Positions 8,032 through 20,316 of a stretch of 56,204 bases of DNA are shown piece after piece. Position 1 is the stretch's first letter. Each line of letters begins with the position of its first letter. The position numbers and the translations under genes are program-made. The notes below the pieces were generated by a model. It saw nothing but the letters and a program-made list of their open reading frames with translations. It ran no database searches and was not told where the DNA came from. The stretch comes from an uncultured Candidatus Actinomarina sp. GTDB lineage: Bacteria; Actinomycetota; Acidimicrobiia; Actinomarinales; Actinomarinaceae. The stretch spans positions 1 through 56,204 of the forward strand of contig CACPJC010000006.1 in assembly GCA_902634185.1 (NCBI GenBank), given 5' to 3'.

Positions 8032-8835
8032 ATGAAAAAGATAATATCATTTGCATCAGATTTTGGAATTTCAGACGGTTCAGTTGGCATTGTTAAAGGT
8101 GTAATTAGTAGAATCGACCCCAATATCAAAGTCAATGATATTTCTCATGGGATTCCACCACAAAATATCAAATATGGAAGTCTCTTACTCATGAGGGCTA
8201 TTCAATATATTCCACAAGGCGTTCTCTTAGCAGTTGTTGATCCAGGTGTAGGGACAGAAAGAAAACCTGTTGCTATAGAGACTGATTGGGGGGTGATGAT
8301 TGGACCTGATAATGGATTATTAAATCTTGCATGTGCAACTGTAGGTGGAGCTAAAAAAGCATATCTTCTTGAAAATGAAAATTGGATTATCCCTAGTGAT
8401 GGAAATACTTTTCATGCTAGAGATATATTCTCTCCTTTTGCTGCAGGTTTAGCGTCAGGTCAGCTTGATATCAAAGATTGTGGAGAGGAAGTTGATTTGA
8501 TGAATCTTCAACAATATTTGATTCCCTTAACAGAAAAAAAAGAAGATGAGGTAAAGGGCGAAATCTTGTGGATAGATCATTACGGTAATTGTCAAACCAA
8601 CATTTCACCCGATGAACTTAATGATCTCGGAAAAAATATTGGAGATGTTTTAAGCGTAAATATACAAAATCAGGAAATTAAAATGACATGGTCCCAAACC
8701 TATCAAAATGATGGAGTAAACCAAGTTGGTTTGATTACTGACTCGTGGGGTATGATTTCAATCTTTGCTAAAAACAACAATGCTTCAGAAATAATAGGTG
8801 TAGTTGATGGTGAGAAAATAGATATTAAGAAATAA
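8032..8835 (+). CDS. SAM hydroxide adenosyltransferase (DUF62, chlorinase/fluorinase superfamily)
   Basis: SDFG, VVDPGVGTER, GPDNG, TFHARDIF, IDHYGN. Confidence 0.92.
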   Translation: MKKIISFASDFGISDGSVGIVKGVISRIDPNIKVNDISHGIPPQNIKYGSLLLMRAIQYIPQGVLLAVVDPGVGTERKPVAIETDWGVMIGPDNGLLNLACATVGGAKKAYLLENENWIIPSDGNTFHARDIFSPFAAGLASGQLDIKDCGEEVDLMNLQQYLIPLTEKKEDEVKGEILWIDHYGNCQTNISPDELNDLGKNIGDVLSVNIQNQEIKMTWSQTYQNDGVNQVGLITDSWGMISIFAKNNNASEIIGVVDGEKIDIKK

Positions 8836-10664: not shown

Positions 10665-11615
10665 TTAGCCAGTTGGTTCAACTGCTTCAGTAGTGATTTC
10701 TTCATCTGTTTCTAAAAGTCCACAGTCTTCGAGTACCTCGTCAGTGTTTCCACCACCAAATACTACTCTTTCAAAAACCACAACTGCATAAATCTCATCT
10801 TCAGTAAGTTTTCCTGTAAATCCCGGCATTCCACCGATTGATACTTTATTCTCTGCTCCATACGCGGGTCCAACTTCAGCCTGCCAACCTGCAGATCCTA
10901 ATTCAATCCACAATGCATGATCACTACAAGTTGGAAAAGTAGTATAAAGTTCTCCACCAGTAAATGCAGGACCTACCCCTCCACCACCATTTACTCCATG
11001 GCAACCAGCACATGCTGCAGCACCTGAATAAACTTGTTGTCCAAGTGCAATGTAGTTTATTGAGCTTGCAGACCCAACACCTTTTCCTTCAAATGCGGAT
11101 CCATCACAGTTAACGGTTAATTGAGTTTTTCGATCAACATCTAAAATTCCATTTTCCCCACATTCTTGTGTTGATGATGTATTGACTATCCCAATAACAA
11201 TAAAGAGAGGAATAAGTACAAAACTAAAATTTAGCCATCTGGGCAAAGATGTTTCAGTATTTACCTTTATATTCAATGTTTTATTTGCAAAGGAAACTTT
11301 GTGAATAACTTTTTTAACATTTTCTTTAGAGGATATTTCAGGAACATTTTGAGTATCCTCTTTTACAATTTCTGCAGTATCTTCTTTAGGCTGCTCTAAC
11401 TCTACTTTTTCTTCTACTGGTGGGGTTGGCTCTTCTGCTGATGGTGCTTCTTCAGCAGGTTTTTCTACAGAAGCTACACTTTCTCCTCCAGCCCATGATT
11501 GTAAAACTTCATCCACAGTTCTTCCAGAAGCTTCAGCTCTAGCTTCAGCAGATCGTTGCACCAACGACTCTGGTGCATTTAATAATTCAGCAACTTTACT
11601 TAAGAGTTCACTCAT
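10665..11615 (-). CDS. Membrane-anchored monoheme cytochrome c (CcoP position) with N-terminal shared module
   Basis: CAGCH heme motif, GPAF, GMPGF distal Met, one TM helix, N-terminal repeat module. Confidence 0.88.
   Translation of the reverse strand: MSELLSKVAELLNAPESLVQRSAEARAEASGRTVDEVLQSWAGGESVASVEKPAEEAPSAEEPTPPVEEKVELEQPKEDTAEIVKEDTQNVPEISSKENVKKVIHKVSFANKTLNIKVNTETSLPRWLNFSFVLIPLFIVIGIVNTSSTQECGENGILDVDRKTQLTVNCDGSAFEGKGVGSASSINYIALGQQVYSGAAACAGCHGVNGGGGVGPAFTGGELYTTFPTCSDHALWIELGSAGWQAEVGPAYGAENKVSIGGMPGFTGKLTEDEIYAVVVFERVVFGGGNTDEVLEDCGLLETDEEITTEAVEPTG
11442..11615. repeat. 174-bp perfect direct repeat, copy 1
   Basis: Identical base by base to 12247-12420; encodes the first 58 aa. 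Confidence 0.95.
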
Positions 11616-12420
11616 TTGTACTACCTAAAGATAATAAATAAGTTATTAAATAATCTAAATCTTGATCACTTAGGAAATTTATTGATGGATGAGGTATATC
11701 CTCTTTTACAGATGATGGTTCTAATAAATAATCTTTGAGCCATTCACTATCATTTGTAGGTTCTCGTGTTCCAAGCGTTGACAAATCTGGAGCTAACCTC
11801 AATAAGCCGGTATTTTGAATTAAATTTTTATTAGCAAATTTGTTTTTAAGTATTTTTCCATTTTGCGAATCAGGTATGAGTATTCTTACATTTTGCGTAT
11901 GACATGACTGGCAATTTAATTGATTATAAATAATTGCTCCTTCTAATACTTCTTCACTCACTCGAACAGAATTATTTAAAGATTGCAGAACTATATCTTC
12001 ACTTTGTTGCCTTGGTATTGAAAAAGCAAACATGTATGTGAATACAACTACACCGATCACACCAACAATAAAACTAAGAGAACTTTCTTTCTTTAATTCA
12101 ACATTTTCTTCCTCTATTTCAAGTTGGACAATTTCCTCATCATCATTTTCCTGAACAGAGATTGCATTTTCCTCATCTTGGTCCACAACAGTAGGAGGCT
12201 CTTCAACTGGTACAGTTTCTTCTGTAGGCGGTGCTTCTTGAATAGGTGGTGCTTCTTCAGCAGGTTTTTCTACAGAAGCTACACTTTCTCCTCCAGCCCA
12301 TGATTGTAAAACTTCATCCACAGTTCTTCCAGAAGCTTCAGCTCTAGCTTCAGCAGATCGTTGCACCAACGACTCTGGTGCATTTAATAATTCAGCAACT
12401 TTACTTAAGAGTTCACTCAT
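11608..12420 (-). CDS. CcoO/FixO-like monoheme cytochrome c with N-terminal shared module
   Basis: GAIIYNQLNCQSCHTQNVR resembles CcoO GRDIYIREGCYxCHSQMIR; GLLRLAPDLSTLG resembles GSKRTGPDLARVG. Confidence 0.8.
   Translation of the reverse strand: MSELLSKVAELLNAPESLVQRSAEARAEASGRTVDEVLQSWAGGESVASVEKPAEEAPPIQEAPPTEETVPVEEPPTVVDQDEENAISVQENDDEEIVQLEIEEENVELKKESSLSFIVGVIGVVVFTYMFAFSIPRQQSEDIVLQSLNNSVRVSEEVLEGAIIYNQLNCQSCHTQNVRILIPDSQNGKILKNKFANKNLIQNTGLLRLAPDLSTLGTREPTNDSEWLKDYLLEPSSVKEDIPHPSINFLSDQDLDYLITYLLSLGSTNE
12247..12420. repeat. 174-bp perfect direct repeat, copy 2
   Basis: Identical to 11442-11615. Confidence 0.95.
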
Positions 12421-13820
12421 ACTGGAAGCTCCTCTTCAGTAAGTTCAATTGTTTCTGCTTCTGTAATTTCTCCATTTACCACTGCCTTGACGACTGAAAT
12501 GAAAAACAACAGAAATGGAAGAAGTAATGTCAAAGATAAAAACATATTTAGCGTTAAAGGAGTACTGATCAGTGACCACAATAAACCGAACCCTTCACCA
12601 TAGATTGTTGGGTTTCCTGCATTGGCACCAGCATTCCATGAGTAACCAGAAATAACTCCAATTAAAGCATTAGAAAATAATGTTAAAGACACCACAAGTT
12701 TTAATAGAAAACTAGTTAAAGACTCAAGCCTTGAAAATTTGACTTCTCTTCCAAAGATTTTAGGAATCAGATAATAAACAAACGAGATTGTAATTAATAA
12801 TGCACTGAAAACATATCCATATCTGATTGCTATAGCAAAATTTGTAAGACTCAATATAGGAATGATATTTGAGAGCGAGGACACAATTTGAAAGATATTT
12901 GTAATAACAAATATTCCAAACGAGAAACTTATAAGACTATAAATTACTTTATTTTCGTCAACTCTTGTCGAGACCGTTCTGAAGAAATTTACAGCTATAG
13001 CAAGCAATGGGAGAGACAAACTTACAGACAAGTAAAGGGATATATTTTCAATCCAATTTGGTAATACAGAACCAAAATAAAATTTAAAATTTGACCAAGG
13101 AAGGAGAAATAAGAATCCCCAAAAACCTATAGATCCCAATGTTTTACTGTACAACGTAGCATTTATACCTTTTGTAATCATGAAATGAAGTAATGATAGA
13201 AATACGAACGAATATCCGACATATATATGTGTTGAAACATACATTGAATTAATGAAAAAATTATCACTAAATACAACAAAATCAGCTCCATAAATTAGAA
13301 GTGATATCAAATAAAAAATACTTGCACCAAAAAGATACTGACTACTTACAAACAGAGAAGCTTCTTTTTTGGCCAATAAATTTAATATAATGAGTCCAAC
13401 AAATGCAAAAAATATTAAGATTTTAAAAATTAATGTATAACTAGTATTCCCAAAGAACAAAAAACTATTAGGAAATAATATTCCTAATAATAGATCGAGT
13501 GACTCCAATCCAATAACTCCCAATGAAGTTAGAAAAAAAATTGGGAATATTATTAATTTTCTTCCAAGTGTTTTTGGTAATAAGTAAACAGTCAAAAACA
13601 CAATTAAAAATGAAAGCATCAAATTGTAAGTTATATGGTTATTTAGTTTTTCTAAATATCCGCTATTGAGAAAACTATTTTGTGGGAGTATGGCTGCGAA
13701 AATGAAATAAGCTTCTTTTGTTAATGCAATAGTTCCTAAAAGAAGCAAAAAAAGTGGAGTTAAAACAATAAAAAATTTTGAAAACGCTTGTTCATTTTTT
13801 GGAAAAATTTTTATTCTCAT
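12417..13820 (-). CDS. Degenerate CcoN-like (cbb3 heme-copper oxidase subunit I) membrane protein lacking canonical His ligands
   Basis: 467 aa, about 12 TM segments; FLNSGYLEKL, LYSKTLGSIGFW, LPNWIE and YYLIPKIFGRE align by eye to CcoN; only three His in the whole protein; precedes a ccoO-like gene. Confidence 0.72.
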   Translation of the reverse strand: MRIKIFPKNEQAFSKFFIVLTPLFLLLLGTIALTKEAYFIFAAILPQNSFLNSGYLEKLNNHITYNLMLSFLIVFLTVYLLPKTLGRKLIIFPIFFLTSLGVIGLESLDLLLGILFPNSFLFFGNTSYTLIFKILIFFAFVGLIILNLLAKKEASLFVSSQYLFGASIFYLISLLIYGADFVVFSDNFFINSMYVSTHIYVGYSFVFLSLLHFMITKGINATLYSKTLGSIGFWGFLFLLPWSNFKFYFGSVLPNWIENISLYLSVSLSLPLLAIAVNFFRTVSTRVDENKVIYSLISFSFGIFVITNIFQIVSSLSNIIPILSLTNFAIAIRYGYVFSALLITISFVYYLIPKIFGREVKFSRLESLTSFLLKLVVSLTLFSNALIGVISGYSWNAGANAGNPTIYGEGFGLLWSLISTPLTLNMFLSLTLLLPFLLFFISVVKAVVNGEITEAETIELTEEELPV

Positions 13821-13989
13821 TAATTTAAAAAGTAAGTACTCAATTTGACTTTACTATTAAACCATAGAAATTACTCCAATAAAATTAGTAATTTTTTGAA
13901 AAAGTTGGGTTATAAAATTTATAATATCTAGGTAATCCTTGATAGAATAGATATTGAAGGTTTTGAGTAAATAACGTGTTGAGGGAAAC

Positions 13990-14583
13990 TTGTTAAATTT
14001 TATATTTATTAACCGATACAAAATCGGAGTTGCTTTAATTTTTGCCGGAGTAGGTGGCATAACAATTGGAGTAATTATTGCACATTTCGCCGGATTTCCT
14101 GAAGGCGAAGTGATCGATTATTTTAATTGGATGCCTAGGGGCTGGCTAATGCAAACTATCGGGCAACTCATTGCTTTTGGTGCAGGACAATTCCTATTGA
14201 TTGGAATGGCTATGCTTGCATGGCAAGATTCTGAATTAACTTGGGCTAGAGCAACATATCTGGCATTTCTCAGTTGGATACAATTTGCACTTATATTTGG
14301 TGTATTGCCTTCTGAGTGGTTAAACCTTTCTCAAGGACCTCTTGAATGGACAAACCAAAGAGAGTTTATTAACTTTCCTCCAATTTTATTTTTAGGTAAC
14401 GAAATAGGAATGAGCCTCGGAGCTCTGAAAGACATTATTCAACTTGGTATATCAGGTGGAGCATTAGTGACAGCTTTTGTAGTAGGGTATCTAATTCAAG
14501 ATATCAACGAAGCAAAAGAAAGAGGCAAAACTAGAGTTTCTGATTATGGAAAACAAGTCGTGAAGGTAGGTGCTGATGGCTAA
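13990..14583 (+). CDS. Membrane protein of unknown function, first gene of the bc-complex operon
   Basis: 197 aa, about 4 TM segments, TTG start with GAGGG RBS, overlaps the ferredoxin gene. Confidence 0.75.
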   Translation: MLNFIFINRYKIGVALIFAGVGGITIGVIIAHFAGFPEGEVIDYFNWMPRGWLMQTIGQLIAFGAGQFLLIGMAMLAWQDSELTWARATYLAFLSWIQFALIFGVLPSEWLNLSQGPLEWTNQREFINFPPILFLGNEIGMSLGALKDIIQLGISGGALVTAFVVGYLIQDINEAKERGKTRVSDYGKQVVKVGADG

Positions 14584-15025
14584 ATCAGAAGTACTTATTG
14601 AAATGCCTGAATTTGAAAAAAAATACAATTTAGCTATGGTCGAAGCCGAAAAGGTTTCATCAAGGGTTAGGCCAAAACAGTTTTTACATATTGATGAGGC
14701 AGAGTGCATTTTATGTGAAGGATGTGTAGATATCTGTCCATGGAAATGCATACATTATTTATCAACAGACGCTATAGAAGACTCTATAAACGTGGAAGCT
14801 CCTAACATGGAAGATAACGAAACGGGATTTTTTGTTGTCGATGAAGAAGCTTGTACAAGATGTGCATTATGTGTTGATAGGTGCCCAACAGGGGTTATAT
14901 CGCTCGGTAAGTTTGCTGGATCTTTAGCGGATGCAGCAATAAAGAACGGTGTTTATGAATCTCCATGGGATGAAGACTCAGGAGAGAGAAGTGACCGTCA
15001 TGGCTATATATATGGAAGACTTTAA
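14576..15025 (+). CDS. 2x[4Fe-4S] ferredoxin-like protein
   Basis: CILCEGCVDICP and CTRCALCVDRCP; ATG 14576 preferred over GTG 14570. Confidence 0.92.
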   Translation: MAKSEVLIEMPEFEKKYNLAMVEAEKVSSRVRPKQFLHIDEAECILCEGCVDICPWKCIHYLSTDAIEDSINVEAPNMEDNETGFFVVDEEACTRCALCVDRCPTGVISLGKFAGSLADAAIKNGVYESPWDEDSGERSDRHGYIYGRL

Positions 15026-15804
15026 TGAAGAACGAAAAAATTAAATTTAGAGATCGATTAAAAGATATTAGTTCGGGACTGGGAGAGTCTTTAAAAGAAA
15101 GTACGCTTTGGGGAAGTATTTTTAGACCAGGATCTCCATTTAGAAAAGGTTATTCAGATAGTCCAAGAAATAGATCATATGTTGTTATGAACAATGTTTT
15201 GTATCACCTCCATCCAGTAAAAGTAAAAAGACATGGTGTTAGGTTGTCATATACACTTTGCTTAGGAGGATTAAGCTTCTTCACATTTATTGTTTTGACC
15301 ATAACTGGTATTTGGTTGATGTTTTATTTTAGACCTACAGAAATGGCATATGTTGATATCCAATCTTTACAGACAAGTATTGCGTTTGGATCTCTAGTTA
15401 GAAATATGCACAGGTGGGCGGCTCATATAATGGTGTTAGTAGTGTTTCTTCACATGTCTCGAGTTTTTTATCATGGGGCGTACAAAGCACCTAGAGAGTT
15501 TAACTGGGTGATTGGAGTTATATTATTACTTTTAACACTTCTACTTTCATTTACTGGCTATCTACTTCCATGGGACCAGTTGGCGATTTGGGCTGTGACT
15601 GTGGGTGGAAACATGGCAGGCTATACTCCCGTTTTTGGTGCCCAAGTTAAGTTTGCATTATTTGCAGGACTAGAAGCTACTGAAGCAACACTTCTTAGAT
15701 TCTATGTTTTACATGTTCTATTTTTTCCTTTCATCATTGTAATTTTTATGGCAATTCATTTCTGGCGAGTAAGAAAGGATGGAGGAATCTCAGGTCCTCT
15801 ATAA
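15025..15804 (+). CDS. petB: Cytochrome b6-like subunit (split cytochrome b, N-terminal part) of a Rieske/cytochrome b complex
   Basis: LCLGG, RNMHRWAAH, FLHMSRV, PREFNW, FTGYLLPWDQ, RFYVLH, AIHF; 4-helix length. Confidence 0.92.
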   Translation: MKNEKIKFRDRLKDISSGLGESLKESTLWGSIFRPGSPFRKGYSDSPRNRSYVVMNNVLYHLHPVKVKRHGVRLSYTLCLGGLSFFTFIVLTITGIWLMFYFRPTEMAYVDIQSLQTSIAFGSLVRNMHRWAAHIMVLVVFLHMSRVFYHGAYKAPREFNWVIGVILLLLTLLLSFTGYLLPWDQLAIWAVTVGGNMAGYTPVFGAQVKFALFAGLEATEATLLRFYVLHVLFFPFIIVIFMAIHFWRVRKDGGISGPL

Positions 15805-15810
15805 ATATAT

Positions 15811-16665
15811 ATGGTTGATATTCCAGAACATTTATTATTAAAAACTGCTGAAGCAAGAGCTAAGGCCTTAGGTATTTCAGTTGAACAAGCATTGGCTGAA
15901 ATGAGAGGTGAAGCTGAGCCTACCAAAATTGAGAAAGAGCCAGATGTTATTGAAGTTACTCCAATTGAAGTAGAAGCCAAAGAAACACCAGCACCAGCAG
16001 CTGAAGTGAAAGAAACACCAGCACCAGCAGCTGAAGTCAAAGAAACACCAGCACCAGCAGCTGCAGTAAAAGAAGCACCGGCTCCTACACCTGAAAAATC
16101 AAACGGACAAGTACCTACTGAAGTAGATTTTGCACCTGAGACAAAAGTAACACAAAGGTTGCTTACGGTCGTCAAAGCAAAGCCAATACAAAAACCAACT
16201 TCTGAACCAGTTGATAAAGTAAACACATGGCCTCATTTAATGTTGCCAGAGTTTATTTCATTAATGGCAATGACAGCGTTTTTGATTTTTATAAGTGCAA
16301 TTTTGCAAGCTCCTTTATTAGAAGAAGCAAATCCAAACATTACACCAAACCCTGCAAAAGCACCATGGTACTTTTTAGGACTACAAGAATTACTCTCCTA
16401 TTGGGATCCACAGATCGCAGGGGTGATGATACCTCTTCTAATTGGTGTTGCAGCATTTATGGCAATTCCATATATTGATCGAAATAAAGAAAATAAGCCT
16501 TCAAAAAGAAAATATGCAATAATGTTGTGGACATTTTTTCTGGCAGGTGCTGGAACATTAAGTCTTATAGGTATTTTATTTAGAGGCCCAGGTTGGAACT
16601 GGACGTATCCATGGATTGATGGTGTATGGTTCGATGACTTACTTGACTGGGTCCATTTCGAATGA
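15811..16665 (+). CDS. petD: Subunit IV-like protein (cytochrome b C-terminal part) with N-terminal shared module and PA-rich linker
   Basis: WPHL, ANPNITPNPAKAPWYFLGLQELL, IPYIDR, 3 TM segments. Confidence 0.88.
   Translation: MVDIPEHLLLKTAEARAKALGISVEQALAEMRGEAEPTKIEKEPDVIEVTPIEVEAKETPAPAAEVKETPAPAAEVKETPAPAAAVKEAPAPTPEKSNGQVPTEVDFAPETKVTQRLLTVVKAKPIQKPTSEPVDKVNTWPHLMLPEFISLMAMTAFLIFISAILQAPLLEEANPNITPNPAKAPWYFLGLQELLSYWDPQIAGVMIPLLIGVAAFMAIPYIDRNKENKPSKRKYAIMLWTFFLAGAGTLSLIGILFRGPGWNWTYPWIDGVWFDDLLDWVHFE
15979..16079 (+). repeat. 30-bp tandem repeat, three copies plus a partial, encoding (KETPAPAAEV)n
   Basis: aaagaaacaccagcaccagcagctgaagt(g/c) units at 15979, 16009 and 16039 (third copy has one further change), degenerate at 16069. 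Confidence 0.92.
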
Positions 16666-17540
16666 CTCTTGTTGAGCTTTCATTTATTGCAATTGCATTT
16701 ATTGGAGTTTTTGGTGTAATTGGAATTGCAGCTGTAGTAACTGGAAGAACCCCAAAAGCTGTAACAAAAAGATTAAATTGGAAAAAGAATTTAGACAAAA
16801 AAGCTTTAAAAGTTGATAAATCTCAAACAAATTTTTTAGCTCCAGATGAACCAGATTTTGAAGAAGAAAACGTATCTGAAGATAGCGAACAAGAGGAAGA
16901 AGAAATTCAAACCGATGGATCCATTGCAATAAAAGAAGAAATAATTTATGAAGAAATTTCAGAAGAAGAAGCTGGAATGACTCGTAGACAATTTTTGGGT
17001 AAAGCCCTTGGAATCACGTTTGGAGCATTTGCTGGTATACAATTAATTTCTTGGCTTGGATTCTTCTATCCAAAAGTTTCTGGAGGTTTTGGATCTAAAA
17101 TAGATGCTGGTAGAGTTGATGATCTTAAAGACCAAATTTTCCAGTCAGATGGTTCAGTTATTCCTGCATTCATCCCGGAAGCAAGAGCTTATGTCTTACC
17201 ATTTGATGACAATGGCAACTCTCAGTTTTCTGATAGTGGAACTATTGCAGACGGTTTAGTTGCAGTTTATCAACGATGTGTTCATTTAGGTTGCCGTGTT
17301 CCATGGTGTAATACTTCACAAGGATTTGAATGTCCATGTCATGGTTCAAAATACAATATGGTTGGTGAGTATTACGCAGGTCCTGCTCCAAGAAACTTAG
17401 ATAGATTTATTGTAAGTGTTTCAGGAGGAAAATTAATTATTGACACAGGATCAGTCATTGAGTCACCTCGAGCTGATGGTATGTCTGTGAAATATCCACA
17501 AGGACTTTCATGTATCACAATCGCAGAGACTGAGGAATAA
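16662..17540 (+). CDS. Rieske [2Fe-2S] subunit of the bc complex
   Basis: CVHLGC and CPCHGSKY boxes, GPAPRNL, internal TRRQFL Tat motif followed by a TM helix. Confidence 0.95.
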   Translation: MTLVELSFIAIAFIGVFGVIGIAAVVTGRTPKAVTKRLNWKKNLDKKALKVDKSQTNFLAPDEPDFEEENVSEDSEQEEEEIQTDGSIAIKEEIIYEEISEEEAGMTRRQFLGKALGITFGAFAGIQLISWLGFFYPKVSGGFGSKIDAGRVDDLKDQIFQSDGSVIPAFIPEARAYVLPFDDNGNSQFSDSGTIADGLVAVYQRCVHLGCRVPWCNTSQGFECPCHGSKYNMVGEYYAGPAPRNLDRFIVSVSGGKLIIDTGSVIESPRADGMSVKYPQGLSCITIAETEE

Positions 17541-17541
17541 A

Positions 17542-18966
17542 ATGAATAGCTCGTTTTTCATAACATTAATCGCATTAGCAGTGGTTGGTGCAATAGCTTA
17601 TTTTTCTGCAGTTGGTTTTCGTGGAGCAGGAAAAATCAAAAAAGTACCAAGAAATTTACAAAAATATCTTCCGGATGATGAATTAGAGACTACTCACCTT
17701 GATAAAACATTATCAATAGCAGTTGTGCTAGCTTCTTTACTTACAATTATGATTCCACTTTATTATCTCGGTGAACCAGCGAGACAAGAAAGTTTTGTAG
17801 AGGAGTTTGACGACGTTTCAGTTGAAAGAGGGCATCATCTTTACGAAGAGTTTGGGTGTGGAAACTGCCATGGAGTAGATGGAAGTGGTGGAGCAGCTTC
17901 ATATGTTGAAAAAAGAAGTGGTGTAAGTGTTACATGGGTAGCCCCTGCAATAAACAATGTGTTTTATAGATATGATGATGAAGAAGTAAGATATTGGCTT
18001 ATATACGGTAGAGCAAACTCACCTATGCCAGCTTGGGGTCTAAAAGGCGGAGGTCCAATGAATGATGGACAGCTTGACGACTTAATAGAGTATTTGCATT
18101 ATTTTCAAATTCCACAAAGTGAAGAACTTCAACAAATTGAACAAAATATAAACTCATCTTTGCTTCGAATTGAAAATTCCGATTTACAAGTTGAAAGTGA
18201 GATTAATAAACAACATGAACTTATCGACAACATTAAGGCAGCTCCGGAAAGACTACCTGTTGCAATTGAAGCTGTTGAAATTGTCTCTGCCATCCTAGCA
18301 AGGCAGAACGGAATCGATACCGATGAAGATGGGCTTTTTGATTCGGTAGAAACAGATATATCAGTTTATAGTGAAAGTGTTGCAGATGTTTTGGGTACTA
18401 CAATTTTAAATCTAAATCCAGATGAAGAAGAATCAACACCAGGAAGAAAAGATGCATCAGTCGTTAGGGGGTACCTTTCTGATCTCGAAACGAGTGTTAT
18501 TAATCTTGGAATACTTACTGATGGTTATGACAAATTTATGGAGGAAGCAGAAAAAGGTTTAGCATTTCTTGAAAATGCCTACGAACAAAAATTATGGCTT
18601 ATTGATTTCCAAGATATTGCAGATTCAACTTTTGATGGAGATTATGACAAAGCAACAAGAGCAGTAGGAATATTTAATGCATATTGTGCGAGATGTCACA
18701 CTGCTGGTTATTCTGCAGGAGCTGCATATACAAAAACAATTGGTTCTGGAGGGTTAGGTCCTGCATTAAAAGGTGGACGAGTAAATATTCAGTTTAAAGA
18801 GAGAGATGACTTCATCGATTTTATTATCAACGGTTCCGTCAACGGCAAAGGTTATGGAGTCAATGGAGTTGGTGGTGGAAAAATGCCAGGATTTGGTGCG
18901 GTACTTCCACAGTCAGATATAGAATTGGTTATAGATTATTTGAGAGGAATGACACCTGATGCGTGA
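17542..18966 (+). CDS. Membrane-anchored diheme cytochrome c
   Basis: CGNCH with MPAW, CARCH with MPGF, two N-terminal TM segments. Confidence 0.9.
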   Translation: MNSSFFITLIALAVVGAIAYFSAVGFRGAGKIKKVPRNLQKYLPDDELETTHLDKTLSIAVVLASLLTIMIPLYYLGEPARQESFVEEFDDVSVERGHHLYEEFGCGNCHGVDGSGGAASYVEKRSGVSVTWVAPAINNVFYRYDDEEVRYWLIYGRANSPMPAWGLKGGGPMNDGQLDDLIEYLHYFQIPQSEELQQIEQNINSSLLRIENSDLQVESEINKQHELIDNIKAAPERLPVAIEAVEIVSAILARQNGIDTDEDGLFDSVETDISVYSESVADVLGTTILNLNPDEEESTPGRKDASVVRGYLSDLETSVINLGILTDGYDKFMEEAEKGLAFLENAYEQKLWLIDFQDIADSTFDGDYDKATRAVGIFNAYCARCHTAGYSAGAAYTKTIGSGGLGPALKGGRVNIQFKERDDFIDFIINGSVNGKGYGVNGVGGGKMPGFGAVLPQSDIELVIDYLRGMTPDA

Positions 18967-19327
18967 GATAATGAGAACCCTGTTGTCATCTAATTTGACA
19001 TTTACTGGAATTTTCCTTTTTGTTCTTTTTGTTCTCTCATTTTTTGGATCAACTTTTATTTTGAACGCAACAAACTTAGGTAGAAGACTTGGTTTCCTTG
19101 TTGTTGGAGCTGCAACTTTTGGATGGCTAGTTATTAATTCATTTCTGTTTATACTTTATGCTCCTAGGGGCCCAGCCCCATCATCGATAGATGGTCTAAA
19201 CGCTCTAGAAATTAGAATTATTCCAATTACTTATTTTGCTGGATCTTTAATACTTTTTATTATGTTTATGCTTGCTTTAAATAGATACGAACAAGAAGAA
19301 AAAGATACAGAAGAAACAAATAGTTAA
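18959..19327 (+). CDS. Small membrane protein, last gene of the bc operon
   Basis: 122 aa, 3 TM segments, overlaps the cytochrome c stop. Confidence 0.75.
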   Translation: MREIMRTLLSSNLTFTGIFLFVLFVLSFFGSTFILNATNLGRRLGFLVVGAATFGWLVINSFLFILYAPRGPAPSSIDGLNALEIRIIPITYFAGSLILFIMFMLALNRYEQEEKDTEETNS

Positions 19328-19368: not shown

Positions 19369-20316
19369 ATGGAATTTATAGTTTCAATTGTAAGAAGCGT
19401 CATATTATTTGGTCTTCTAATATTTATTGCGTTTAGAATATTCAGAATCTTAAGACCATTCGAAAAAGGATTGGTTGAAAGATTTGGTAAGTATAATCGT
19501 GAAGCAACCGCAGGACTAAACATTGTAATTCCGGGGATTGAAAAATTAATCATCGTAGACATGAGGGAACAAGTTATCGATGTTCCACCACAAGAAGTTA
19601 TTACAAAAGACAACGTCACAATTACTGTTGATGCAGTCATTTATTATGAACCAACTGATCCTAAAAAACTTGTATATAACGTCGGAGATTTTATCACTGC
19701 AGCAACAAAATTAGCACAAACCAACCTAAGAAACGTGGTTGGTGATCTTGAGTTAGATGCTGCTTTAACTTCAAGAGAGACTATTAATACATCTTTAAAA
19801 TTGATACTTGACGAAGCAACAGATAAATGGGGTACAAGAGTTGTACGTGTTGAAATTCAAAGAATTGATCCTCCTCAAGATGTTCAAGATGCAATGAACA
19901 AAGTTATGAAGGCTGAGAGGGATAGAAGAGCTGCTGTTACCGAAGCTGAAGGTGAAAAAAGAGCTGCAATTTTGACAGCAGAAGGTGAAAGAGAGTCACA
20001 AATTTTAAGTGCTCAAGGTGAAGCTGAAGCATTGAAACAAGTTGCCGATGCTGAAAAGTATGAAAGAGTAGTTACAGCAGAAGGTGAAGCTGAAGCTATA
20101 TTGAAAGTTTTCAATGCAATTCATGAAGGTGATCCTTCAAACGATTTGATAGCAATAAAATATCTAGAATCTCTTGAAAAAGTTGCTGATGGAAATGCTA
20201 CAAAAATATTTTTGCCAGCAGATTTATCTGCAACTTTGGGCAGTATTGGAGCAATTTCAGAATTGTTCAAGGATGAAAACAAAGATTCCACTGAATCTGA
20301 AGATAAAGAAGAGTAA
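19369..20316 (+). CDS. SPFH/band 7 (stomatin/QmcA-like) protein
   Basis: VERFGKY, PQEVITKDNV, QTNLRNVVG, KAERDRRA. Confidence 0.95.
   Translation: MEFIVSIVRSVILFGLLIFIAFRIFRILRPFEKGLVERFGKYNREATAGLNIVIPGIEKLIIVDMREQVIDVPPQEVITKDNVTITVDAVIYYEPTDPKKLVYNVGDFITAATKLAQTNLRNVVGDLELDAALTSRETINTSLKLILDEATDKWGTRVVRVEIQRIDPPQDVQDAMNKVMKAERDRRAAVTEAEGEKRAAILTAEGERESQILSAQGEAEALKQVADAEKYERVVTAEGEAEAILKVFNAIHEGDPSNDLIAIKYLESLEKVADGNATKIFLPADLSATLGSIGAISELFKDENKDSTESEDKEE

Follow-up and report, generated by a model that had tools for sequence, protein, structure and literature searches.

The locus described here raises the question of what the catalytic subunit of a terminal oxidase does once the ligands of its cofactors are gone. 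It lies in a contig of 56,204 nucleotides (nt) from an uncultured Candidatus Actinomarina sp. (CACPJC010000006.1, assembly GCA_902634185.1), hereafter the window, which means this whole stretch at its full length. A preliminary description, made from the letters alone, had assigned one of its genes to a protein resembling CcoN, subunit I of the cbb3-type cytochrome oxidases, that has lost the histidines for heme and CuB; we term it pseudo-CcoN. Our analysis indicates that pseudo-CcoN works like a cofactor-free structural subunit: it descends from CcoN, yet lacks the CcoN ligand set and scores below the cut-off of the CcoN family. It probably serves as a cofactor-free scaffold in an assembly of the Rieske/cytochrome b complex (complex III) with a caa3 oxidase.

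12417..13820, minus strand, pseudo-CcoN, 467 residues, 12 long helices in the prediction, fold of heme-copper oxidase subunit I, with the heme and CuB ligands absent

Overall structure of pseudo-CcoN

The minus strand from 12417 to 13820 is a single uninterrupted frame of 467 residues, and the plus strand is riddled with stops. The protein contains three histidines (His62, His198 and His212); the intact open reading frame with three His that had been described is thus borne out, on the minus strand. Pseudo-CcoN matched the Pfam family COX1 (PF00115) with an E-value of 6e-10, and reached 41.4 bits against the ccoN equivalog TIGR00780, below its cut-off of 583.15. A sequence search of the PDB gave five matches, every one of them a cbb3 CcoN, and profile-profile alignment (hhalign) against 12 six-His homologues gave a probability of 99.5.

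A structural model, predicted from a 74-row alignment with intact homologues among its rows, has 12 long helices, with a predicted local distance difference test (pLDDT) score of 89 and a predicted template modelling (pTM) score of 0.92. Structural similarity search revealed that the model most closely resembles the CcoN subunits of 3MK7, 6XKW, 8SMR, 9G83 and 9G6B (TM-score 0.82-0.85), with Z-scores of 40.7-42.2 and root-mean-square deviations (RMSD) of 2.5-2.7 Å. Superposition against 3MK7 and 8SMR gave a Z-score of 42.2 and an RMSD of 2.5 Å over 444-446 residues (444 for 3MK7). The scores were lower against NorB (Z 35.6-36.8) and the A-family enzymes (Z at most 34). The COX1 match, the PDB matches, the profile-profile probability and the Z-score of 42.2 all uphold the homology that had been claimed, and the check suggested with it, structural homology to heme-copper oxidase subunit I, recovered the fold. 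Pseudo-CcoN is a true homologue of CcoN.

Loss of the cofactor ligands

Ligand sites were numbered after Pseudomonas stutzeri CcoN, through the offset of the PDB sequence alignment. In that protein we take His60 and His347 to bind low-spin heme b, His345 heme b3 and His207, His257 and His258 CuB, and Tyr251 to be the cross-linking tyrosine. Both low-spin heme b ligands are lost in pseudo-CcoN, where His60 is replaced by Asn60 and His347 by Tyr334, as is the high-spin heme b3 ligand His345, replaced by Ile332 here and by Ile or Val in 120/120 close homologues (source names Candidatus Actinomarina or Acidimicrobiia). At the CuB site, Lys246 and Phe247 replace His257 and His258, and His207 corresponds to either Ser196 or His198, leaving at most one of the three. 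The cross-linking Tyr of helix VII is Leu240 in pseudo-CcoN and Leu, Met or Ile in 120/120 close homologues, compared to Tyr in 8/8 intact references. The site of His207 aside, a His occurs at these ligand positions once in total among the 120 close homologues, at the His347 site, where Tyr is the most frequent residue (84/120 close homologues and 18/39 class orthologues).

The uncertainty at His207 arises from helix VI. An ungapped MAFFT alignment pairs Ser196 with His207, whereas phmmer and hhalign place His198 on it through 2-residue gaps inside the helix; because of this ambiguous register, five or six of the six ligands are lost. The by-eye motif pairings with CcoN in the preliminary description hold, and its statement that all six ligand His are gone is certain for five sites, the sixth being Ser196 or His198 depending on the register.

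13227..13229, minus strand, His198 codon, invariant in the genus; a shifted CuB His or, if aligned without gaps, the counterpart of P. stutzeri A209 and bovine E242

His198 is conserved in 120/120 close homologues, among which 126 of the 467 columns (27%) are equally invariant; the sister genus has Gln at this position, and orthologues across the class Acidimicrobiia mostly a hydrophobic residue. In the ungapped register it falls on P. stutzeri A209, which the residue table of PMC12901375, as far as that source was available, aligns with the bovine gating glutamate E242.

The class orthologues were scored at the ligand sites after two fragments of locus L073 and one A1 subunit had been dropped (n = 39). 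None of the six sites carries a His in 38/39 of them, and the remaining one has a single His. A conserved replacement metal site was sought but none emerged, there being no conserved His, Met or Cys column at the ligand sites in these 39 sequences. The six-His set of NorB, the cytochrome c-dependent nitric oxide reductase, is likewise absent from pseudo-CcoN. As judged from the aligned sites, pseudo-CcoN cannot form a canonical heme b or heme b3-CuB centre in whichever register of helix VI, which sustains the ligand-loss argument that it would be unable to reduce O2 or NO.

Selection on pseudo-ccoN

The genome that holds the window (974 kb, 83% complete) encodes an intact A1-type caa3 oxidase with the motifs GHPEVY, HH and HFH, and the adjoining subunit II has a cytochrome c domain; neither ccoG nor ccoS was found in this incomplete assembly. 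In the order, whose genomes are about 1.1 Mb in size, pseudo-ccoN is present in 54/62 genomes and in 11/11 high-quality ones. One order copy (G017) has a frameshift, the gene is split in L073, and the stop flagged in G013 does not interrupt its frame, which is intact at 468 residues. The protein is 461-467 residues long in 118 of the 120 close matches listed, down to 52% identity.

Ratios of nonsynonymous to synonymous substitution rates (dN/dS) were calculated by the Nei-Gojobori method from the 39/44 loci that gave a full frame, where 135 of 741 pairs had a usable dS; values of 0.19-0.34 came from near-saturated pairs and were set aside. The median was 0.09 over the 135 pairs, and the values against the four nearest genomes were 0.07-0.10. 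Neutral evolution or frequent disruption of the orthologues, named beforehand as signs of a decaying pseudogene, is therefore not what the data show: the orthologues are intact apart from the one frameshifted copy among the genomes of the order, and under purifying selection. Pseudo-ccoN is also the fastest-evolving gene of its cluster, with 31% identity to the sister genus; the corresponding figures are 41% (ccoO), 87% (cytochrome b) and 84% (caa3 subunit I). A gene that is selected and nevertheless the least conserved of its cluster displays the pattern expected of a structural protein without a catalytic centre. Contigs from seawater RNA libraries covered parts of pseudo-ccoN in three of four runs and the edge of the gene in the fourth; they were not counted as evidence, as contigs of this kind reveal neither the level nor the strand and do not prove true transcription.

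Organization of the locus

Pseudo-ccoN is the first of three overlapping genes on the minus strand, divergent from a complex III operon on the plus strand.

11608..12420, minus strand, CcoO-like monoheme cytochrome c, 270 residues, N-terminal tag, acidic linker, one hydrophobic segment, CQSCH
12247..12420, minus strand, tag of the CcoO-like protein, first 174 nt identical to 11442-11615
10665..11615, minus strand, second membrane-anchored monoheme cytochrome c, 316 residues, CAGCH, distal Met by alignment, N-terminal tag
11442..11615, minus strand, tag of the second cytochrome c, identical copy of the CcoO tag
13821..13989, no strand, AT-rich gap of 169 bp between the two divergent operons, a putative shared promoter region
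13990..14583, plus strand, conserved membrane protein without a known family, heads the Rieske/cytochrome b operon, in 41/41 loci
14570..15025, plus strand, 2[4Fe-4S]-type ferredoxin
15025..15804, plus strand, cytochrome b6-like N-terminal half, CLGG (heme ci-type) motif
15811..16665, plus strand, cytochrome b subunit IV, APWY Qo motif, N-terminal tag at 15811-15927
16662..17540, plus strand, Rieske [2Fe-2S] protein
17542..18966, plus strand, diheme cytochrome c
18959..19327, plus strand, small conserved membrane protein, last gene of the complex III operon

Pseudo-ccoN overlaps the ccoO-like gene by 4 nt, in agreement with its described position ahead of such a gene, and ccoO overlaps the gene of the second cytochrome c by 8 nt. 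The CcoO-like protein matches FixO with an E-value of 6e-7 and has His, not Met, at the position of the distal heme ligand. Reading this ligand by eye in 40 CcoO sequences gave His in 23, Met in 15 and Gln in two; the change from Met to His is found in this genus and in family f2, and all 13 CcoO forms fused to CcoN retain Met. The second box of the Rieske protein (16662-17540) reads GSxY in 37/39 loci, which we take as a high-potential signature that would be unexpected if the quinone were menaquinone. At the borders of the cluster, an SPFH/band 7 gene (19369-20316) follows the operon here and is not among the conserved neighbours, and a gene for S-adenosylmethionine hydroxide adenosyltransferase (8032-8835 here) flanks the cluster in 36/41 loci.

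Distribution of the module in the class

A single-sequence search matched 95/299 genomes of the class. We compared 41 loci, namely 39 of the 63 matches outside the family together with the sister genus and the window, a few of which are truncated by a contig edge; as the genomes are related and kin are not independent, the numbers are to be read as counts and not as statistics. A CcoO domain accompanies pseudo-ccoN in 41/41 loci, encoded separately in 28 and fused in 13. The Rieske/cytochrome b operon, consisting of the membrane protein, ferredoxin, split cytochrome b, Rieske protein, diheme cytochrome c and small membrane protein, is nearby in 41/41, and its cytochrome b carries APWY in 40/41 and CxGG in 41/41. 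Ligand loss is old and common to several actinomycetal lineages, and not a product of genome streamlining.

In locus L066 (G071:C13), the genes run in the order resB, resC, pseudo-ccoN, coxB, coxA, coxC, coxD, ctaG, ccoO and cytochrome c, divergent from the Rieske/cytochrome b operon, so that the caa3 genes and ctaG stand between pseudo-ccoN and ccoO. Maturation genes, either resB/resC or of the ccm type, are located directly upstream in the basal lineages L062, L066, L117, L120, L122, L129 and L128.

The same cytochrome b occurs in 184/199 class genomes. We selected 20 genomes from families without a pseudo-ccoN match (L307-L326), and found both pseudo-ccoN and ccoO missing at the locus in 20/20, with the second cytochrome kept in 11. 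A profile search of these 20 module-less genomes gave weak, mostly partial matches with E-values of 7e-18 or worse, compared to 1e-80 or better for orthologues. Since the two genes are absent together in 20/20 genomes that keep complex III, N and O stand or fall together, the respiratory chain can run without both, and the module is dispensable in many families of Acidimicrobiia. In 16/20 of the module-less genomes the small membrane protein at the end of the operon is about 150 residues longer. A cupredoxin was considered for this extra domain and found no support, as 12/12 of the longer proteins gave no Pfam match to it or to any other family.

A tag shared by the partner proteins

The CcoO-like protein, the second cytochrome and cytochrome b subunit IV all start with a related module of about 40 residues (the tag), followed by an acidic proline-rich linker. 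The identical first 174 nt of the two cytochrome genes form a direct repeat in adjacent genes. The two cytochrome tags of a genome are closer to each other than the median between-genome pair in 22/22 loci, and identical in four. Tag matches in relatives often lie at contig ends, and the 174-nt repeat probably breaks assemblies. In loci with an untagged CcoO fused to N, the second cytochrome often has two or three tags in tandem (L072, L077, L078, L065 of family f12, L070 and L075). A shorter form of the tag is found on subunit IV in 16/20 module-less loci.

Searching the 3,671 open reading frames of this genome with a tag profile revealed two tagged proteins besides these three. One is a multi-pass membrane protein of 354 residues (G000:C7:31799-32863; L247:6800-7864), encoded directly after ctaG in the caa3 operon. 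Its orthologues were found in 7/10 further genomes at about 2-6 kb from coxA. It belongs to no Pfam family, and the Atlas search gave unnamed clusters only; the protein is a candidate new oxidase-associated subunit. The other is the alpha subunit of a 2-oxoacid:ferredoxin oxidoreductase (G000:C3:36647-39337; L246:5648-8338), which has two tags of the subunit IV type, one at each end, on long Glu/Val/Pro linkers. This tag was confirmed in 4/5 genomes picked for extra matches; only part of the genus has it.

Modelled alone, the tag folds into three helices (pLDDT 92). A structure search of 48,161 chains gave nothing convincing (best Z 5.7), and the sequence had no PDB match below an E-value of 0.1, no Pfam family at a useful E-value and no Atlas match.

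Ligand-poor copies outside the class

Twenty loci fetched from outside the class comprised 13 copies with 0-2 His at the ligand sites, five intact CcoN and two NorB-like proteins. In two basal copies (L125 and L133) the low-spin heme b pair is all that remains of the ligand His; both are possible intermediates. Another possible intermediate, P0163, has lost the CuB pair alone.

A scan seeded with the ligand-poor non-actinomycetal matches found 426 loci; we retained the best 80, whose titles nearly all read Verrucomicrobiota. In these Verrucomicrobia-type loci the genes for N, O and a cytochrome c come after those of an alternative complex III. Among the best 80 of 426, CcoN has six His in 66 and 0-2 His, in the same slot, in 14. 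Trees place the ligand-poor Verrucomicrobia-type copies among intact sequences and apart from the actinomycetal group; the quick tree covered 44 of 152 rows, carried no approximately unbiased test and has a long Actinomarina branch. A single origin of all ligand-poor CcoN was rejected, as the two groups are divided by starred branches that bear intact sequences, and on these trees the Verrucomicrobia-type ligand loss is a separate event.

The ligand-poor Verrucomicrobia-type genomes encode a full A1 oxidase in 13/14 cases and an intact cbb3 in the 14th, and actinomycetal carriers have an A-family subunit I match in 60/62; among control genomes with an intact CcoN, 4/16 have no second COX1-family gene. 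Two further observations concern the Verrucomicrobia-type loci (L136-L215). Among those with downstream room, a copper P-type ATPase follows the operon in 14/46 intact and 0/7 ligand-poor ones, too few to weigh. The record titles of L137 (Methylomirabilota), L174 (Bifidobacterium) and L215 (Haliangiales) clash with the operon type and are possible mislabels.

Proposed role of pseudo-CcoN

Altogether, the 12-helix barrel is kept, the ligands are gone, the gene is under selection, it is coupled or fused to CcoO, complex III is close by, an A-family oxidase is present and the partners share a tag. Among the roles suggested in the preliminary description (scaffold, ion or proton conduit, sensor), the scaffold is the best supported, and conduit and sensor are weaker. 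We propose that pseudo-CcoN originated in a cbb3 oxidase partnered with the neighbouring complex III. The caa3 oxidase would then have taken over O2 reduction, after which the cofactor sites decayed. The barrel would have been retained because CcoO depends on it for docking in the membrane and the two proteins were by then integral to an assembly that holds membrane-bound c cytochromes between the Rieske/cytochrome b complex and caa3. Electrons would pass from quinol to the Rieske protein, the diheme cytochrome c, the CcoO-like protein and second cytochrome c on the scaffold, and finally caa3, with pseudo-CcoN itself passing none. The cytoplasmic tag of about 40 residues on its long acidic linkers may gather these parts, through mutual binding or a common hub. 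The branch would be accessory and not obligatory, the same complex III running without the module in many Acidimicrobiia.

Several features are consistent with this proposal. Ligand-poor and intact Verrucomicrobia-type copies occupy the same slot after the alternative complex III, which suggests a tie to complex III, and the heme b pair left alone in L125 and L133 may reflect stepwise decay. The gene order of G071 and the tagged membrane protein encoded near coxA in 7/10 genomes both point to a tie with caa3. In the available parts of two sources, cbb3 forms supercomplexes with complex III (PMC7876108), and actinobacteria such as Mycobacterium and Corynebacterium have no soluble cytochrome c (PMC8361435).

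Other observations weigh against the proposal. The 20 module-less genomes keep the same complex III, so the module is not needed for the chain in general. Bis-His hemes are usually of lower potential, so the His ligand of 23/40 CcoO makes their heme a poor fit to a plain bridge to caa3. The tag is located on the partners and absent from pseudo-CcoN itself; on the caa3-linked protein it was not found in 3/10 genomes, and it is most like the cytochrome tags of its own genome in just 4/8. The ligand-poor copy of L133 has no ccoO or complex III neighbour in sight. Finally, the APWY complex is uncharacterised and, in the available text of PMC4122944, proposed to run in reverse.

A wider version of the scaffold proposal, possible and rather doubtful, is a tag-assembled respiratory hub in Acidimicrobiia. 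The tag would have been copied onto subunit IV, the two c cytochromes and the caa3-linked protein and kept alike by gene conversion, and the dead oxidase core, arisen more than once, would be the membrane platform of the hub. Some Actinomarina would add the oxidoreductase, and His198 may be a regained protonatable His at the A-family gating Glu site.

The low potential expected of a bis-His heme also bears on an unlikely alternative, in which pseudo-CcoN, CcoO and cytochrome c form a side branch for low-potential electron entry, buffering or redox sensing. Pseudo-CcoN would still be a scaffold, off the road to caa3, and the branch would exchange electrons at the outer face or support reverse flow through the APWY complex. 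The Met-to-His change of this genus and family f2 fits such a branch, as do the dispensability of the module in 20/20 selected genomes, the ferredoxin and CLGG motif of the operon and, within the available text, the reverse operation proposed for APWY complexes (PMC4122944). No donor enzyme is conserved beside the genes, however, 15/40 CcoO keep Met, and the operon and tag links indicate caa3. A role as a conduit is quite improbable. H+ or Na+ would travel through the cavity that the cofactors have vacated, or through what is left of the K-type channel, the partner cytochromes would act as the gate, and in Actinomarina His198 would replace the A-family gating Glu. Of the residues that we take to line the K-type path of CcoN, the equivalents of Y223, N289 and T293 are mostly kept (in 33, 37 as N/D and 25 of 39 class orthologues), whereas those of T215, S240 and Y251 are lost class-wide. 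The ungapped match of His198 to A209 and E242 (PMC12901375, available in part) would suit a conduit, and H198, K246, N278 and T282 are invariant in the 120 close homologues and E106 in the 119 covering its site; but 27% of columns are invariant in the genus regardless, the commonest class-wide residues at position 198 are hydrophobic, and no chemistry remains to power pumping.

The maturation genes directly upstream in basal lineages would fit a role in assembly: while complex III or caa3 matures, pseudo-CcoN would act as a membrane chaperone, either keeping hold of cytochrome c in its apo or holo form or handing over heme or lipid. We give this only a slim chance, given that no His, Met or Cys is conserved for handling heme or copper, that neither Actinomarina nor most class loci have maturation genes next to the cluster, and that being fused to CcoO speaks for a permanent partner. 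A new catalytic or sensing activity could come from a non-canonical cofactor or metal site, such as His198 together with neighbouring Tyr, Lys or Gln, or a heme with a Tyr ligand, a reading that finds some encouragement in the phmmer and hhalign register that sets His198 on the CuB His (an HxxVG pattern) and in the prevalence of Tyr at the His347 site. It is nonetheless very unlikely: His198 is Gln in the sister genus, Lys and Phe/Tyr replace the other CuB His, small residues on helix II fill the heme b site, and ccoG and ccoS were not found in the 83%-complete genome. Pseudo-CcoN is almost certainly not a decaying pseudogene or a hitch-hiking relic without function. Its fast evolution, its absence from many families, the frameshift in G017 and the split in L073 would agree with decay, which is already contradicted by a dN/dS of about 0.09, the constant length and the presence of the gene in all high-quality genomes of an order with such small genomes.

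If the scaffold proposal is true, the catalytic subunit of a terminal oxidase has turned into a cofactor-free structural protein across actinomycetal lineages, and again in Verrucomicrobia-type operons, providing a natural test of how supercomplexes lock in parts after catalysis has moved elsewhere. The source databases name these ligand-less proteins 'cbb3-type cytochrome oxidase subunit 1', so that a high-affinity oxidase or low-oxygen lifestyle inferred from this gene in Actinomarina, related Acidimicrobiia and some Verrucomicrobia is probably wrong. The tag offers a concrete and cheap handle on the wiring of the APWY-type complex III, itself uncharacterised, of an abundant marine heterotroph, and, should the hub exist, the tag of the oxidoreductase would tie a step of the tricarboxylic acid cycle, via the operon ferredoxin, to complex III and then caa3.

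Comparison with known systems

A full-text search found no published description of a cofactor-less CcoN, although oxidase surveys in subscription journals or supplements may note such sequences. The available parts of PMC5600118, bioRxiv 10.64898/2026.01.22.701106, PMC9145763 and PMC8475189 contain nothing on pseudo-CcoN.

The system shares with the cbb3 oxidases of P. stutzeri (3MK7/5DJQ), P. aeruginosa (8SMR) and R. capsulatus (6XKW) the 12-helix fold (TM-score 0.83-0.85, Z 41-42), the order N-O-cytochrome c, the N-O fusion in some lineages, the heme-binding motif of CcoO and the association with complex III. Compared to these enzymes, pseudo-CcoN lacks the ligand set for heme b, heme b3 and CuB as well as the cross-linking Tyr, the third gene encodes a monoheme cytochrome and not the diheme CcoP, the distal Met of CcoO is often His, ccoG and ccoS were not found, and the partners carry tags. 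The obligate bcc-aa3 supercomplex of Mycobacterium and Corynebacterium, as described in the available part of PMC8361435, similarly links complexes III and IV by membrane-bound c hemes with no soluble cytochrome c, an arrangement on which gene order, fusion, joint loss and the shared tag bear here, and also has a diheme cytochrome c in complex III. It differs in that cytochrome b is here split, of the APWY/CLGG type and accompanied by a ferredoxin, the oxidase is caa3, and a cofactor-less CcoN and two more c cytochromes are added.

Complex III itself resembles the Rieske/cytochrome b complexes of the APWY clade (Kao and Hunte 2014, PMC4122944) in its split cytochrome b and in the APWY and CxGG motifs. 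The available text of that study lists a split cytochrome b in Ilumatobacter and Rubrobacteridae, gives the clade as biochemically uncharacterised at its 2014 date, and makes no mention of cbb3, a ligand-less CcoN or a tag.

A parallel for the proposed role lies in alternative complex III. Its ActF and the Mo-free domain of its ActB are cofactor-less subunits, in which a catalytic fold is likewise kept as a structural subunit. Here, by contrast, what is kept is the catalytic subunit of a terminal oxidase, and a different, active oxidase stands beside it.

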